Shown here in pieces: positions 18,972 to 25,454 of a stretch of 64,000 nucleotides of DNA. The stretch covers positions 13,606-77,605 of the forward strand of contig JAFGIL010000047.1 in the NCBI GenBank assembly GCA_016929635.1. Reading direction: 5' to 3'. This DNA comes from Endomicrobiales bacterium (GTDB lineage: Bacteria > Elusimicrobiota > Endomicrobiia > Endomicrobiales > JAFGIL01). Positions within the stretch are counted from its first letter, which is position 1, and each line of letters opens with the position of its first letter. The translations under genes and the position numbers were made by a program. The notes under the pieces are model-generated. The model made no database searches. It worked only from the letters and a program-made list of their open reading frames with translations, and was not told the origin of the DNA.

Positions 18972-20882
18972 ATGAAGCAGTTTCCTGAAGAGAAAACAAA
19001 TTTCATGAATTTTGGAGATATATCAGAATTTATCAGAAAGAAGAATACAATTGTCTTTCTTGATACGGCTTTATATTCCGAGGAGGAGTCAAACTCGTAT
19101 TTATTTGTTAATCCTATAAAAGAAATAGTGGCAAAAAATCTTAATGAAATAGACAGTTTGTTGAAAAAAGTAAAAAAATATGCAGATAAATACTGGTTGA
19201 GCGGATACCTGTCTTATGAAGCTGCTTATGCGATAGAGAATAAACTTGCTGGATTAAGGAATAATTTTAAAAACTCATTGCCACTTGCGTGGTTTGGAGT
19301 GTTTGAAAAGCCATATATCTTCAGTCATAAACATAATAAGTGGAATAAAAAATTACATTCGGTCAAAGATGGCCGATCTATAAGCCGCAATTCACATAAT
19401 ATACCCCTCGTTATTAAACATACAATGGATTATGATACCTATGTAAAAAAAATCCGGGCAATTAGAAATTATATTGCAAAAGGGGATACTTATCAGGTCA
19501 ATTTTACATATGATGTGGATGTGAAATCAGGATTGCCCCCGTTTGAGTTATACAACCAGCTTCGTAGTAATCAGCCCACTAAATACTGCGCATTCATAAA
19601 GAATAAATTCGGAAATATTATGTCATTTTCTCCTGAGCTATTTTTTAAAAAAGAAAGCGATAAAATCACAGTAAAGCCGATGAAAGGTACAGCATCGAGG
19701 AAAAAGCGCGACAATGAACAAATCAGGAAGTTCGAAAAGGATAAAAAAAACAATGCAGAAAATGTGATGATTGTGGATTTGTTAAGAAATGATCTCGGAA
19801 GAATATGCGGCACGGAATCAATTAAAGTGAGCAAATTGTTTGAAATTGAAACTCATCCCACCGTTCATCAGATGACATCCACCATACAGGGAAAAATGAG
19901 ACCAAATGTAGATATATCGGATATAATAAAAAGTTTATTCCCGTCGGGATCAGTAACCGGCGCCCCTAAAATAAGGACAATGGAAATAATCCGTTCACTG
20001 GAAAAAGGCGAGAGGGGTGTCTATTGCGGAATGCTCGGATTCATATCCCCGGATAAAAAATCTGTTTTCAATGTACCGATACGGACCCTTCAGAGGAAAA
20101 AAGGCGAAAAGAATTGGAGGTACAGGGTAGGCAGCGGGATTGTATGGAACTCGTCTGCAGAAGCAGAACGAAAAGAATGTGAAACAAAATGTTCTTTTTT
20201 AACGCTGCCGAATATGCCTCATTTTGAGATTTTTGAATCTATGCTTTGGGATGGAAAAAAGTTTTTATACTTGAAGGACCATATTGATAGATTAAAAAGG
20301 TCAGCTAAATTTTTTAGTTATCCTATAACAAAAGATAAACTCTGCGAAATAATAAGTAAGATTACAAAAAAAATTAAATCTTCCTCTTTCCCCATTTGTC
20401 AAAGGGAGAATAAGGGCGGGGTGAAGCTAAAAATCCGTATTTTTTTAAATAAATCAGGATATATCAGATGGGATTTTAGTAAGGTTATTGATCCCGGAGG
20501 TTTAAATTTACAAAGAATAATTTTATCTGAAAAGAGAATAGATGAAAAGAATGTTTTTCTTTATCATAAAACAACATATAAATCCTGGTATGAAGAATCA
20601 CTGGAAAAAGTGCATAAAGGCAGCTGCTTTGATGTGATTTTTTGCAATTCAAAGGGGGAGGTAACAGAGGGGTCCAGATCAAACGTTTTCATAAGAAAAA
20701 ACGGCATAATGTATACGCCTCCTGTCAGGAGCGGTTTGTTGCAGGGTGTTTTAAGAAAGCAGCTGCTACGCAGTAAAAAATGCATTGAAAAAACAATGAG
20801 AATAAACGATTTATATAAAGCGGATGCGGTATATTGCGGCAACTCTGTCAGGGGCCTGGTTGAGGTAAGGCTTAAAATTTGA
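18972..20882 (+). CDS. pabB: Aminodeoxychorismate synthase component I fused to ADC lyase (class IV PLP) domain
   Basis: GDTYQVN, SPELFF, KPMKGT, AENVMIVDLLRNDL, FPSGSVTGAPK, GSGIV; C-term HKTT, EGSRSNVF, GLLQGVLR. Confidence 0.9.
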   Translation: MKQFPEEKTNFMNFGDISEFIRKKNTIVFLDTALYSEEESNSYLFVNPIKEIVAKNLNEIDSLLKKVKKYADKYWLSGYLSYEAAYAIENKLAGLRNNFKNSLPLAWFGVFEKPYIFSHKHNKWNKKLHSVKDGRSISRNSHNIPLVIKHTMDYDTYVKKIRAIRNYIAKGDTYQVNFTYDVDVKSGLPPFELYNQLRSNQPTKYCAFIKNKFGNIMSFSPELFFKKESDKITVKPMKGTASRKKRDNEQIRKFEKDKKNNAENVMIVDLLRNDLGRICGTESIKVSKLFEIETHPTVHQMTSTIQGKMRPNVDISDIIKSLFPSGSVTGAPKIRTMEIIRSLEKGERGVYCGMLGFISPDKKSVFNVPIRTLQRKKGEKNWRYRVGSGIVWNSSAEAERKECETKCSFLTLPNMPHFEIFESMLWDGKKFLYLKDHIDRLKRSAKFFSYPITKDKLCEIISKITKKIKSSSFPICQRENKGGVKLKIRIFLNKSGYIRWDFSKVIDPGGLNLQRIILSEKRIDEKNVFLYHKTTYKSWYEESLEKVHKGSCFDVIFCNSKGEVTEGSRSNVFIRKNGIMYTPPVRSGLLQGVLRKQLLRSKKCIEKTMRINDLYKADAVYCGNSVRGLVEVRLKI

Positions 20883-21819
20883 TATTGGGCCTTATCATAA
20901 AGTATAGGTTATCTTCTGTCTCCAGATTTTTTAAAGCACCTGTATACTTTTCACCTTTCTCAAGTAAAAACCCGAACTTAATTTGAAAAGCAAATTTTTT
21001 TGTCTTGTGAGGAAATGATTTTCCGATAAGTAAAAAGTGTGTAATAGCCTGCAGTTCCTTGTAATCTATGTCTATCTTATACTCAAAACTGGCATTATTA
21101 AAAATTGATTTTTTTTGTTCTTTAAAATCTACCCTGTCGCGAAAGATTGAAAAGTATAACACATCTTTTATATCGGAGTGATCGTGTTGTTTTGTCCCTA
21201 TCCTGTAACTCCACGAAATTGTCCGTTTTTCGGTTATCTTGTCGCCTTTGATTTTCCATTCCAATTCAAACCATTTATCCTCTATTAATTCGCTGTTTTT
21301 TATGTGAAAGCTTCCAATGCTGGCAAGATATCCCATGTATGCTTTTCCTTTTATATCCTTTGAAACGCCCTTTGGTTGAAAACTCACAAGGTTGCCCAGA
21401 AAAAATGAGAATGCGGTTGGTTCCTCAAACCCTGCACACATGCTTTCTATAAGATTTAGGTCATCGGAAACGCTCATGTTGTTGTAAAAGCCATTGTAAT
21501 TTTTTTTAACAGCAACTCCAAGCATGGGAAAAGGATAGCAGCTTATTTCCAGAAGCAGGAATCTTGGAATAAAAGATCTTTTCCAGAGATATTTATATAT
21601 TTCACTTTCATCTTCTTCTTTAAGATATGGCAAAGGTTTTTTTGTCAGGCTTGTATATATTTCGAGGTAGCTGTAATATGGGTCAAACTCTGCATCATAT
21701 GCATATGTTCCATAATCTTTATAAAACAAGGTATAGGCATTTAGAAAGGTTGGAATACTAAGAAAAGCGATAAATATAAGAGTTCTGAAAATAATTCTGA
21801 TTATTAAAAATCTTAGCAT
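20872..21819 (-). CDS. Hypothetical exported protein, probable outer-membrane beta-barrel
   Basis: Signal peptide ending LNA; aromatic-rich alternating strands; C-terminal YFMIRPNIKF ending in Phe. Confidence 0.55.
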   Translation of the reverse strand: MLRFLIIRIIFRTLIFIAFLSIPTFLNAYTLFYKDYGTYAYDAEFDPYYSYLEIYTSLTKKPLPYLKEEDESEIYKYLWKRSFIPRFLLLEISCYPFPMLGVAVKKNYNGFYNNMSVSDDLNLIESMCAGFEEPTAFSFFLGNLVSFQPKGVSKDIKGKAYMGYLASIGSFHIKNSELIEDKWFELEWKIKGDKITEKRTISWSYRIGTKQHDHSDIKDVLYFSIFRDRVDFKEQKKSIFNNASFEYKIDIDYKELQAITHFLLIGKSFPHKTKKFAFQIKFGFLLEKGEKYTGALKNLETEDNLYFMIRPNIKF

Positions 21820-21822
21820 AAT

Positions 21823-21852
21823 AAAAAGAAGACAGCCCGAAACCGGGCTGCC
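21823..21852 (-). terminator. Intrinsic terminator (minus strand)
   Basis: 9-bp GC-rich stem (one G-U), 4-nt loop, T-tract only on the minus strand. Confidence 0.8.
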
Positions 21853-21889
21853 TTGCCTGAATAGGTATAGTTCATCTATCCCCAGGCAA
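21823..21889 (-). ncRNA. Candidate ~65-nt two-hairpin sRNA or attenuator/riboswitch leader
   Basis: Begins just after a consensus promoter; stem TTGCCTG...CAGGCAA then hairpin GGCAGCCCG-GTTT-CGGGCTGTC followed by TTCTTTTT. Confidence 0.5.
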
Positions 21890-21893
21890 TACT

Positions 21894-21922
21894 AGTATAA
21901 CAAACACCAAAAAAAACGTCAA
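21894..21922 (-). promoter_or_regulatory. sigma70-type promoter upstream of the structured leader
   Basis: TTGACG-17 nt-TATACT on the minus strand. Confidence 0.65.
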
Positions 21923-21949
21923 GTCCTTTTTCTCCATAAAAAGCCGGAT

Positions 21950-23467
21950 CTAAACAATAAAAAGATTTTTGGATGAAAAAACCGGGTCGCTGGTAAGGTT
22001 AACCCCCAAAGTCCTTAACCCGGCCTCATCGCCAGGTGTGGGTATGTGGGTTATATGAACCTCACAACCCCTCAATTCTTTTAGTTTTTCCATTGCCAGT
22101 TTAGCTGTAGGATTAGTAGTTGCGCTTATACTTAAAACCATGAGGGTTTCATCAAGGTTAAGACTTACTGTTTTTTTATTGAGTATGTCGCTTTTCAGGT
22201 CCCTGATTGACTCAATAATATTGGGGGCTAAAACATGAATTTTATCTGGAATTTCAGCCAGTTTTTTAATAGCGTTAAGCACAAGGCTTGATGCTGCATG
22301 CATCAATGGGGAGTTTTTGCCGGTAATTATAGTACCCTCTTTCAATTCAATTGCTGCCCCGCAGAACATTCCTTCGTTTCCTTTGTCAGTTTTTTGGGCT
22401 TCTTCAGCTGCTTTCCTTGCGGGAAGAACCACATTTCTGTCATCAGGAGACATATCCAGCTCATTCATTATTAGTTCTGCTCTTTGAACGGTTTCTTTGT
22501 CTACAAATCCCATTGCGTACTCGCATTTATATCTTAAATATCTTCTTATAACTTCCTGTTTTGCTGCATTTTGAACAGCTTCATCGTCAACAATCCCGAA
22601 ACCGGCGCGGTTAACTCCCATATCAGTGGGAGATTTATACATCGATTCCTTGCCGGTTATTCTTTCGAGAATATTTTTTACTACAGGGAATACTTCAACG
22701 TCGCGATTATAATTTATGGCCTTTTCATTGTAAGCTTCAAGATGAAAAGGGTCTATTTCATTATAATCCTTGATATCAGCGGTAGCAGATTCATACGCGA
22801 TATTAACAGGATGTTTAAGGGGGATGTTCCAGATAGGGAAAGTTTCGAATTTTGCATAACCTGAATTAAAGCCTTTTTTGTGGTCGTGATAAAGCTGGGA
22901 CAGGCACGTTGCAAGTTTGCCGCTGCCCGGACCCGGGCCCGTGACAACGACTAAAGGCTTTTTTGTTTTGATGTATTCATTTGCGCCATAACCCTTATCG
23001 CTTACAATTAAATCCACGTCCGTAGGATACCCTTTTGTTACACCATGTGTGTATACACTGATATTTCTGCGCTCCAGTTTGTTTTTAAAGAACTGAGCGG
23101 AAGGCTGGTTTTCGAAACGGGTTATTACTACACTGGTGACATCAAGCCCCCATTCTTTTAAGTCATCTATCAATTTCAGCGCGTCAACATCATACGTAAT
23201 ACCAAAATCTGCCCTGACTTTTTTTCGTTCAATATCCCCTGCGTAAATGCAGAGTATTATGTCCGCTTGGTCTTTTAGTTTCTGGAGCAGTTTCATTTTT
23301 ACATTCGGGTCAAACCCAGGCAAAACGCGGGAAGCATGATAATCGAATATAAGCTTTCCTCCGAACTCAAGATATAATTTATTGTCAAAGGTTTTTATCC
23401 TTTCAAGAATGGCTTTTGACTGTTCGTTCAGGTATTTCTCGTTATCAAACCCGGTTTTGTTTACCAT
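21950..23467 (-). CDS. DUF1846 family protein
   Basis: [73 protein letters not shown]. Confidence 0.9.
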
Positions 23468-23476
23468 TTATTCCTC

Positions 23477-24310
23477 CTATTTTCTGTTTTTCATGGATTC
23501 TTCCAGTTTTTCTCCGATTTTCCTTCCGAATTTCTCGGCGATTCCTTTTAAAAAATCGTTATTATCAAACTTTTCTTTTAAAGCTTTTATTAGAATCTGT
23601 GTCATAGCAGCATTAAAATCGAACTTTAAGTCATCAAGTTTCCCGTTAACCGGCAGATTAAAAGTAACGGTGTTTTCCCTGAAGAATTCCTTAACCAGCA
23701 CGGACGGCATGCCAAAAAGCTTTTTCTCTTTTGTGTCTATATCCAGGTTTTCAATGGTTATAATGTTGTTTGTAGTAAGATAATTCGTGGAATAATGGAT
23801 AGTTGATGTTATCTCAACAGATCCTTCGGTTATAGTTGTTTTATCCGAGGTGGAAAATATCGAATAAAAATATGATAAAGGTACATTCTTAAATTCTGCA
23901 ACGCCTTCAACTTTAATATTTGGCAACAGGGAGGTTAAATACAGGTCAGAGTTAAACTGGCCCTGGTCTTTAAAAGGTATTTGGCCTTTTGCTTTTAAGT
24001 GGAAGTGTTTACTTGAGTTAAGGTATTTAATTTTTAGCTCTCCGTTATTTAATACTTCAACGAATCCGTTCTTTTTTGATTTTATTGATAACTTGATTTT
24101 TCCAAAAGTAATCTCTTTTCGAGGGACTGATAAGACGATGTTTTCAATTACTACTTTTTTATTCTTTAGATTAGAAAGGTTATAATTAATATAGTTTAAT
24201 ACGGTATTCTTTAAAAAGTAGTTTACAGCAAAATTGGCTAAAACTGCAATTATTGCTAAACTGATTATGATTCCTATGATTATTTTTATAATTTGCCTGG
24301 AATTTGACAT
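23477..24310 (-). CDS. DUF748/AsmA-like envelope protein
   Basis: N-terminal TM anchor, beta-rich body, C-terminal FNLPVNGKLDDLKFDF. Confidence 0.55.
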   Translation of the reverse strand: MSNSRQIIKIIIGIIISLAIIAVLANFAVNYFLKNTVLNYINYNLSNLKNKKVVIENIVLSVPRKEITFGKIKLSIKSKKNGFVEVLNNGELKIKYLNSSKHFHLKAKGQIPFKDQGQFNSDLYLTSLLPNIKVEGVAEFKNVPLSYFYSIFSTSDKTTITEGSVEITSTIHYSTNYLTTNNIITIENLDIDTKEKKLFGMPSVLVKEFFRENTVTFNLPVNGKLDDLKFDFNAAMTQILIKALKEKFDNNDFLKGIAEKFGRKIGEKLEESMKNRK

Positions 24311-24446: not shown

Positions 24447-25454
24447 ATGATATTAAAAAAATTTACAGAGTCTGCAAGGGAGTTAAAAGGTACGGTTATT
24501 TTTGCCGAAGGTGATGAGGAAAGGACTCTGGAAGCAGCCGTCCGGTTGAATAAGGATGAAGTATGCAAGGTAGTTATTGTTTCATCCGCTCCTGATAAAA
24601 TCGAAAAAATAGCAAAAGATAAAAAGTTAGATATCTCAAAATTGACAATTCTTGTTCCTGCCCTTGATCTATTAAGCGATTCTGTTTTAAATTGTTTTGT
24701 TGAATCAAGGATAAAAAAGGGTTTAACAAAAGAGGACGCTGAAAAATTGGTTTTAGACCCTCTTTATTTTTCTGCGCTATATGTGAAAAGCGATAAGGCA
24801 AATGGTTGTGTGGCCGGTGCCAGGTCAAGTACCAGCGACGTATTAAAAGCAGCCATACAGGGAATAGGTACTTCCGGCGATACTAAGTTAATCTCCTCTT
24901 TTTTCCTTATGATTCCTCCGGAAAACCATCCGATAATTAAGACTCCGATAATATATGCGGATTGCGGAGTCAACCCCAATCCAAATACGCTTGGATTAAG
25001 GGATATTTCAATATCAAGCATAAAAAGTTTCAGGAGTCTGTTCCCCGGTGAGTCTCCAAAACTTGCTTTCTTGTCTTTTTCGACAAAAGGAAGCGCCAAG
25101 CATAAGACCCTAGATAAAATTATTGAGGCCTGTAATTTGGCAAAGGAATACTTCAAAAATGACTCATCCGTTAAAATAGACGGGGAAGTCCAGTTTGATA
25201 CAGCATCTGTGCCTGCAGTTGCAAAGAAGAAGGCCCCCGATTCTCCCCTGGAAGGCCGGGCTAATATTTTTATTTTTCCCGACCTAAATTCCGGAAATAT
25301 ATGTTATAAAGTAACGGAAAGGCTGGGACAATTCACCGCTATAGGACCGGTCGTTCAGGGCCTGGAAAAACCATTCAATGATTTAAGCAGGGGTTGTTCC
25401 GTAGATGATATTTATCATTCAGCTGTGATAACACTTCTTCAAAGCAGGAAGTAA
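24447..25454 (+). CDS. pta: Phosphate acetyltransferase
   Basis: FAEGDEER, ADCGVNPNP, AFLSFSTKGSA, DGEVQFD, FIFPDLNSGNICYK, GPVVQGL.KP.NDLSRG. Confidence 0.93.
   Translation: MILKKFTESARELKGTVIFAEGDEERTLEAAVRLNKDEVCKVVIVSSAPDKIEKIAKDKKLDISKLTILVPALDLLSDSVLNCFVESRIKKGLTKEDAEKLVLDPLYFSALYVKSDKANGCVAGARSSTSDVLKAAIQGIGTSGDTKLISSFFLMIPPENHPIIKTPIIYADCGVNPNPNTLGLRDISISSIKSFRSLFPGESPKLAFLSFSTKGSAKHKTLDKIIEACNLAKEYFKNDSSVKIDGEVQFDTASVPAVAKKKAPDSPLEGRANIFIFPDLNSGNICYKVTERLGQFTAIGPVVQGLEKPFNDLSRGCSVDDIYHSAVITLLQSRK

Follow-up and report, generated by a model that had tools for sequence, protein, structure and literature searches.

A conserved hairpin-terminator leader upstream of a putative outer-membrane protein gene in Endomicrobiales, a candidate transcription attenuator

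Introduction

Premature intrinsic terminators in 5' untranslated regions (5' UTRs) have been catalogued by premature-terminator surveys and by Term-seq (PMC2965389). In generic attenuation leaders such a terminator lies within about 70 nucleotides (nt) of the promoter and in front of the regulated open reading frame (ORF), and the gene is reached only by read-through. Here, we describe a leader with this layout from the minus strand of a 64-kb stretch of an Endomicrobiales genome (contig JAFGIL010000047.1; the whole stretch of 64,000 nt is called the window). It consists of a promoter, a bulged hairpin (hairpin 1) and a terminator directly in front of a gene for a protein of 315 amino acids (aa). 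This structured 5' leader is real, conserved and previously undescribed, it belongs to the well-known class of terminator-containing leaders, and it probably limits or gates transcription of the 315-aa gene.

Several described systems come close to this arrangement. Outer-membrane protein mRNAs of the ompA type are stabilised by a stable stem-loop within a few nt of their 5' end. Leaders of the BglG, LicT and SacY type carry ribonucleic antiterminator (RAT) sites, which are imperfect hairpins of about 30 nt with asymmetric bulges and an adjoining terminator. In the leaders of the ANTAR regulators EutV, AmiR and NasR/NasT an upstream hairpin is likewise followed by a terminator, and the target rule comprises two hairpins whose hexaloops begin with A and have G as their fourth nt (A1/G4), with an overlap between the second hairpin and the terminator (PMC8934654). 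In the riboswitch for hydroxymethylpyrimidine pyrophosphate (HMP-PP; thiS motif), nearly the whole element is accounted for by a small hairpin plus a terminator (PMC6478431).

Nearly all Elusimicrobia are uncultured, and next to nothing is known of how RNA regulates their genes or of the biology of their outer membranes. The element described here is compact (about 70 nt), has comparative support and follows a clear genetic logic, the gene being reached only through the terminator. If read-through is conditional, the element would identify a signal controlling an uncharacterised outer-membrane protein family, homologues of which occur in 66 of the 401 genomes sampled from the phylum. If it is constitutive, the leader documents how a 5' hairpin and a leaky terminator set the expression of a gene lacking a Shine-Dalgarno (SD) sequence.

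Conservation of the unit at related loci

Rereading the sequence bore out the promoter, the two-hairpin RNA and the terminator that an initial annotation, made from the letters alone, had placed on the minus strand; TTGACG-17-TATACT, both hairpins and the ATG at 21819 are all present (Table 1). The same promoter-hairpin-terminator unit was found directly upstream of 315-aa homologues, on the same strand, at six loci. These are the window itself, which is contig C72 of genome G000 (2.2 Mb, 77 contigs, 39% G+C), the loci L009, L041 and L042, and one locus each in genome G001, of the same family as the window genome, and in genome G005, of another family of the same order. A single-sequence covariance model built from the window (R1) matches five of the loci, window included, with 57-106 bits and E-values of 1e-14 to 1e-29. 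Beyond L009 these matches are in G001 (L003 2504-2435, minus strand, 69 bits), L041 (60 bits) and L042 (57 bits), where the unit lies on the coding strand just before the ATG of the homologue. The copy in G005 (contig C381) has diverged and is recovered solely by a five-sequence model (R2), with 35.6 bits. Here, TTGCAG-17-TGT-TATAAT is followed by a hairpin of similar shape and different inner sequence. The terminator is very similar, and 65 nt beyond it the N-terminus of the homologue begins.

The closest homologue, P0003 (68% identity), is encoded on the 2.8-kb JGI contig L009. Upstream of it stands TTGACG-17-TGT-TATACT, both hexamers being identical to those of the window, and hairpin 1 agrees in 40 of 43 nt. 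The terminator stem of L009, GGCAGUUCCG/CGGAACUGCC, differs from that of the window and its changes are compensated. A -35 hexamer TTGAC[AG] is present at the same distance in L009, G001, L041 and L042, with TTGCAG in G005, and each of the six loci has a -10 element of the form TG[tc]-TAnnnT after a 17-nt spacer, ending 3-4 nt before a conserved (A/G)(U/A)UGCCU. The gap between U-run and ATG is 0-5 nt in the window, L009 and L042. In site scans, promoter-like and terminator-like sites as such were not enriched in the region; it is the conservation at five other loci that lifts the feature beyond chance.

The gene upstream of the unit varies among the loci, being a DUF1846 gene in the window, a DUF748-like gene in L009, a divergent PTA_PTB gene in G001 and a radical-SAM/SPASM gene in G005, and the terminator is therefore not explicable as that of an upstream gene. 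In L009 the DUF748-like gene stands before the leader with no DUF1846 gene in between, and DUF1846 is also missing in G001. In the latter genome an AT-rich spacer of more than 200 nt separates the PTA_PTB gene from the unit and, since this gene is divergent, there is no upstream transcript for the hairpin to terminate. The initial annotation had placed the unit in front of a beta-barrel gene, while allowing that the hairpin might merely end the DUF1846 transcript and lack conservation at homologues. The latter possibility fails, since the unit is kept upstream of the homologues at five other loci, independently of DUF1846. By the comparison of sequences, the unit goes with the downstream gene for a secreted beta-rich protein and is more than a terminator of DUF1846.

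Structure and selection

The minimum free energy fold and the centroid fold of the leader are the same two-hairpin structure, in which only a loop of 5 nt and a bulge of 3 nt stay unpaired. This structure has an energy of -32.5 kcal/mol compared to -19.4 +/- 2.9 kcal/mol for shuffled sequences (z = -4.55), and none of 200 shuffles folds as well. Hairpin 1 is closed by GCCTG (21887-21883) pairing with CAGGC (21859-21855). It is built from an outer stem (U)GCCUG/CAGGC(A), a 3-nt bulge on the 3' side, the pairs GGG/CCU, a bulged A, the pairs AUAG/CUAU and the loop AUGAA. The terminator stem-loop GGCAGCCCG-gttt-CGGGCTGTC follows at 21852-21831, then TTCTTTTT-ATT and the ATG. A terminator scan counts 11 pairs (7 G-C), a 4-nt loop and a U-run, and a promoter scan scores the two hexamers at 10 of 12 matches, with the TG of an extended -10.

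Covariation upstream of homologues had been proposed as a check on the RNA, and it was found. In the comparison of all six members, paired cells make up 97% of the total, and both sides have changed in 7 pairs. None of 500 shuffles matches the observed values for cells paired, for pairs or cells changed on both sides and for the covariation score, and controls slid along the sequence are 34-49% paired; the number of additional pair types does not stand out, since 165 of 500 shuffles reach the observed value. Within hairpin 1 covariation is seen at pairs 8-32 (G-C/A-U) and 9-28 (G-U/G-C/A-U). For the terminator, 98% of cells are paired in the six members and three pairs show compensatory changes, and its upper stem, again with compensatory changes, is different in each member. 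Judged from its letters, with a GC-rich stem, a U-run and pairing kept in relatives, this second hairpin qualifies as a predicted intrinsic (Rho-independent) terminator. The G-U pairs, the one-sided bulge of variable length and the conserved bulged A of hairpin 1 fit an RNA made from this strand and not a symmetric operator in DNA.

Both hairpins differ in the way they are kept. The window and L009 agree at 30% of the fourfold-degenerate positions of the gene, compared to 25% by chance, so neutral sites are saturated. Hairpin 1 and the promoter hexamers are nearly identical despite this saturation, and they are therefore kept by selection, while the terminator keeps only its pairing. This constraint at the level of sequence suggests that hairpin 1 has a specific partner.

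In the 3' strand of hairpin 1, CUAUACCU matches codons 28-30 of the window gene over 8 nt. The match is not kept in G001 and is attributed to chance.

A leader peptide was likewise considered and rejected. The 20-codon ORF that the initial annotation had noted is present in the window (Table 1), and it is not conserved. The loop reads AUGAA or AUGAC in the window and L009 and AUAAA, AUAAC or AUAAU in G001, L041 and L042, so that three members have AUA in place of the start codon. In L009 the ORF runs in frame with the main gene, and its peptide diverges after 5 residues.

Table 1. Positions of the leader, the downstream gene and their neighbours in the window
Feature	Position	Strand	Remarks
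-35 hexamer TTGACG	21922-21917	-	17-nt spacer follows
Extended -10 TGt-TATACT	21902-21894 (TATACT 21899-21894)	-	TG precedes the hexamer
Order after the -10		-	agt, AUUGCCUGGGGAUAGAUGAACUAUACCUAUUCAGGCAA, then terminator GGCAGCCCG-guuu-CGGGCUGUC, then UUCUUUUUAUU, ATG
Hairpin 1	21888-21854	-	predicted 5' end of the transcript
Intrinsic terminator (predicted)	21853-21820, including the U-run	-	10-bp stem AGGCAGCCCG/CGGGCUGUCU, loop GUUU, U-run UCUUUUUAUU reaching the ATG
20-codon ORF (63 nt, MNYTYSGKAARFRAVFFLLC*)	21875-21813	-	spans both hairpins; judged not to be a gene
Putatively regulated gene, 315 aa	21819-20872	-	start without SD; from translation
DUF1846 gene	23467-21950	-	Pfam match; precedes the leader promoter and lies outside the unit
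DUF748-like gene	24310-23477	-	upstream neighbour common to window and L009, 37% identity

Distribution

The initial annotation had matched the RNA to no riboswitch consensus, and searches of Rfam agree with it. In Rfam 15 the whole window gave 0 matches at gathering thresholds. A sensitive scan of 21780-21960 gave at best 24.4 bits, against a gathering threshold of 56, for ctRNA_pT181, and all matches were generic hairpin-plus-terminator shapes. A literature search found no account of such a motif.

Model R1 was run against 401 genomes of the phylum and model R2 against 122 genomes of the class; these covariance scans recovered the leader only in G000, G001 and G005, the other matches being generic GGCAGC...GCUGCC terminators. 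The motif is single-copy in G000, and a model of hairpin 1 alone confirms this for G000 and G001. At 11 further homologue loci, and at 24 more that are loci of the phylum, a model scan with filters off did not find the leader; at several of these leaderless loci a promoter stands only 10-13 nt before the ATG. In a protein tree all five leader-bearing genes belong to a single well-supported clade (99/100) of nine, whose other four genes have no leader. An exact-pattern scan of public genome contigs gave one match, a chance one inside an ORF of Doudnabacteria, and scans of public metagenome contigs with two patterns gave no match.

Comparison with described leaders

Compared to generic attenuation leaders, the unit shows no recognisable pair of antiterminator and anti-antiterminator, and hairpin 1 abuts the terminator (linker of 0-2 nt) instead of overlapping it. 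In contrast to the ompA-type hairpins, a full intrinsic terminator follows here, and within the family sequence is constrained as well as shape.

The ANTAR leaders deserve a closer comparison. A hairpin GGC-AAGGCA-GCC with A1 and G4 that overlaps the terminator can be drawn in three of the six members. On the contrary, hairpin 1 has a 5-nt loop (AURAN) and no A1/G4 hexaloop, and the second candidate hexaloop varies, since it reads CAGGCA in two members and is replaced by a pentaloop in one. The rule of two A1/G4 hexaloops does not hold for the leader, and a canonical ANTAR target was rejected. One ANTAR protein each is encoded in G000, G001 and G005, that of G000 being a GAF-GAF-ANTAR protein (ORF L061:2840-4111) in a secA-ANTAR-lnt-prfB cluster (G000:C42, L061 234-6775). 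Since 33 of the 38 genera of the class carry an ANTAR gene, with or without the leader, the presence of the regulator is not discriminating and the protein is a candidate factor only.

With the RAT leaders, the hairpin region shares the strings AUUG...CUG and CAGGCAA of the RAT consensus. In contrast to them, hairpin 1 overlaps the terminator by at most 1-2 nt. A BglG-type RAT was rejected, because the RNA-binding domain CAT_RBD (PF03123) was found in none of the three genomes G000, G001 and G005, with the E. coli and B. subtilis controls being positive. The HMP-PP riboswitch differs from the leader in more respects, since here there is no Rfam match, a single and non-metabolic gene context, a narrow clade and no ligand implied by the gene.

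Proposed mechanism

The reading that we put forward, with about even confidence, is that of a lineage-specific, cis-acting attenuator-type 5' leader, in which termination is the default, the gene is expressed by read-through and hairpin 1 serves as recognition element. The sigma-70-type promoter would start the RNA 0-3 nt before bulged hairpin 1. The strong intrinsic terminator would follow directly, with the SD-less start codon after its U-run. On its own, the RNA is predicted to fold into hairpin plus terminator, and most transcripts would end as an RNA of about 60-65 nt.

Where the U-run comes as close to the ATG as it does in the window, L009 and L042, a second promoter would not fit between them, and the mRNA would therefore derive from read-through. 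The gene would thus be expressed solely by those polymerases which read through. The terminator fold is 12-15 kcal/mol better than the sole conserved alternative pairing, and termination is therefore the likely default state. This alternative is a register shift of 5-6 base pairs (bp), which moves the 5' UGCCU onto the AGGCA of the 5' strand of the terminator. It is possible in six of six members and is preferred in the nascent RNA of G005.

Two roles appear most likely for hairpin 1, protection of the 5' end and recognition by a factor acting in trans, which would set the level of read-through. A protein would be a likelier effector than a small molecule. The initial annotation had suggested a conditional terminator, controlled by a ligand or by ribosomes and gating an outer-membrane protein. 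The conditional terminator is still the best fit, with the U-run 0-5 nt from the ATG in three members, while ribosome control finds no footing, the start codon of the small ORF being absent from three of five close members.

Several observations weigh against the attenuator. A convincing, mutually exclusive antiterminator was not found, the register shift being weak and without covariation. The inner sequence of the hairpin is replaced in G005, so no universally conserved binding pocket is evident. The comparison comprises only six members, five of them close relatives. Furthermore, hairpin-plus-U-run elements occur elsewhere in G000 just before SD-less genes, and the architecture may therefore partly be general and unregulated. 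The replaced hairpin of G005, the single gene context and the narrow range argue against a classical metabolite riboswitch. The same three features argue in favour of a fast-evolving attenuator that depends on a protein or another factor, or that is even constitutive.

More specifically, hairpin 1 could itself be the sensor, either as a minimal aptamer of about 33 nt for an envelope-related small molecule or ion or as the single, non-hexaloop target of the class-wide GAF-GAF-ANTAR protein encoded between secA and lnt, and could switch synthesis of the putative barrel by conditional read-through. We think this rather unlikely and mention it as a speculative extension.

Alternative explanations

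The alternative that survives best, although it is itself unlikely, is a constitutive leader without a sensor. Here, hairpin 1 would be an ompA-type 5' stabiliser, and the terminator would damp expression, insulate the gene from upstream transcription and offer a U-rich landing pad for SD-independent initiation. The predicted transcript begins with the hairpin, which fits this explanation, as do the like elements before other SD-less genes of G000 (two on contig C16), the copy in G005 that retains shape and not sequence, and the fact that an antiterminator structure was not found. On the contrary, it leaves unexplained why 19 nt of the inner hairpin are nearly invariant, given the saturated synonymous sites and a terminator stem that covaries freely.

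A stand-alone small RNA (sRNA) is also unlikely. In this case the transcript of about 62 nt would function by sequestering a protein or in trans, and read-through into the gene would be secondary. The unit is indeed a complete transcription unit with a strong terminator, hairpin 1 is under selection at the level of sequence, and the weak similarities in Rfam are all to small-RNA or counter-transcribed RNA (ctRNA) shapes. However, the RNA is nearly fully paired, and a free 5-nt loop and 3-nt bulge make a poor seed. It is always attached to the same gene, and at three loci its U-run abuts the ATG, which suggests that the gene depends on it in cis. The loss of the inner sequence in G005 also speaks against an sRNA.

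A riboswitch for a metabolite or ion is improbable. The two-bulge hairpin 1 would be a minimal aptamer, in which the ligand locks the outer stem and thereby favours the terminator, and without ligand the 5' UGCCU would move onto the AGGCA of the terminator. Such a switch would accord with a sequence-constrained hairpin with asymmetric bulges and an adjoining terminator, and with a register shift that all six members allow and that is the preferred nascent fold in G005. Very small aptamers embedded with a terminator are known as well, for example the HMP-PP riboswitch (PMC6478431). Nevertheless, the shifted fold is less stable by 12-15 kcal/mol, G005 has another sequence in place of the aptamer-like core, and Rfam has no match. 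The element is single-copy, in one gene context and in one clade; a core kept across divergent hosts or in several gene contexts was not found in the roughly 400 genomes of the phylum that were scanned, where the element stands only upstream of one gene family.

A DNA operator, in which the inverted repeat at about +5 to +35 binds a dimeric repressor, is very improbable. Its core ATAG-N5-CTAT is palindromic, invariant in sequence and placed just downstream of the promoter, but the two halves of the repeat are not symmetric, owing to a bulged A and to a one-sided bulge of 3-4 nt and variable length. Furthermore, its outer stem covaries across the bulge, and its G-U pairs would have no meaning in DNA.

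A mere DUF1846 terminator or a leader-peptide (ribosome-mediated) attenuator has a negligible chance. The terminator does lie about 100 nt past the DUF1846 stop, and the 20-codon ORF does span both hairpins in the window, but the comparative data contradict both readings. The unit is kept at loci that lack DUF1846 and at one whose upstream gene is divergent, the ATG of the ORF is missing in three of five close members, and its frame differs in L009.

The downstream gene

The translated 315-aa protein has an N-terminal signal-like segment and a C-terminal Phe. It was searched against Pfam and NCBIfam, and no family matched. An AlphaFold2 model built with 41 homologues has a mean predicted local distance difference test score (pLDDT) of 90.3 and is nearly all-beta. 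Foldseek against the PDB shows a weak likeness to outer-membrane barrels such as FadL and porins, with E-values of at least 0.01 and template modelling (TM) scores of at most 0.36. On the basis of this model, an outer-membrane beta-barrel is plausible. A search gave 80 homologues, each named hypothetical. Homologues occur in 66 of 401 sampled genomes of the phylum and in other phyla as well.

The homologue of G005 is divided over two contig ends (C381 and C56; L048 1622-1840, L004) at about residue 70. The piece on C381 ends in a stop after ...EEKEESK, which may reflect a break in the assembly or a disruption of the gene.

In other lineages (L047 1501-3825; L057/L058 1501-3843) the homologue is leaderless and lies inside an operon. 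Here, the PLDc_2 protein encoded after it carries a Por_Secre_tail domain of the type IX secretion system (T9SS), and this neighbour hints at a lipid- or envelope-related role of the 315-aa family.

The initial annotation had also stressed the start without an SD. The sequence before 21819 contains no SD, as it had said, but this is not special. By a crude count, an SD 4-mer precedes the first ATG in about 41% of long ORFs in G000, compared to 11% in the background, so SD-less starts are common in this genome. The neighbouring DUF1846 gene carries a perfect GGAGG.

Two more candidate hairpin leaders are present on contig C16 of G000 (minus strand, reverse-complement coordinates 20384-20408 and 98173-98196). 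Each has a sigma-70-like -10, a stable hairpin with a U-rich run a few nt on and an SD-less ATG 22-24 nt later, and they may represent a recurring style of 5'-hairpin leader in G000.

Gene neighbourhood

In the window, the DUF1846 gene ends with TAG at 21952-21950, about 100 nt before the terminator. A PTA_PTB gene is the divergent neighbour of the window cluster (24447-25454) as well as of the unit in G001, which suggests an old synteny to which the DUF748-like and DUF1846 genes are lineage-specific additions. The gene orders are PTA_PTB-leader-gene in G001 (L003 2435-3907), the DUF748-like gene before the leader in L009 (738-1650) and, in the window, DUF1846 in addition (21950-24310). The start of DUF1846 lies 10 nt past the stop of the DUF748-like gene, and the gene resembles a lineage-specific insertion. 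At its 3' end, the 315-aa gene overlaps by 11 nt (20872-20882) with a convergent fusion gene of chorismate-binding and aminotransferase-IV domains (PabB-PabC-like; 18972-20882, plus strand).

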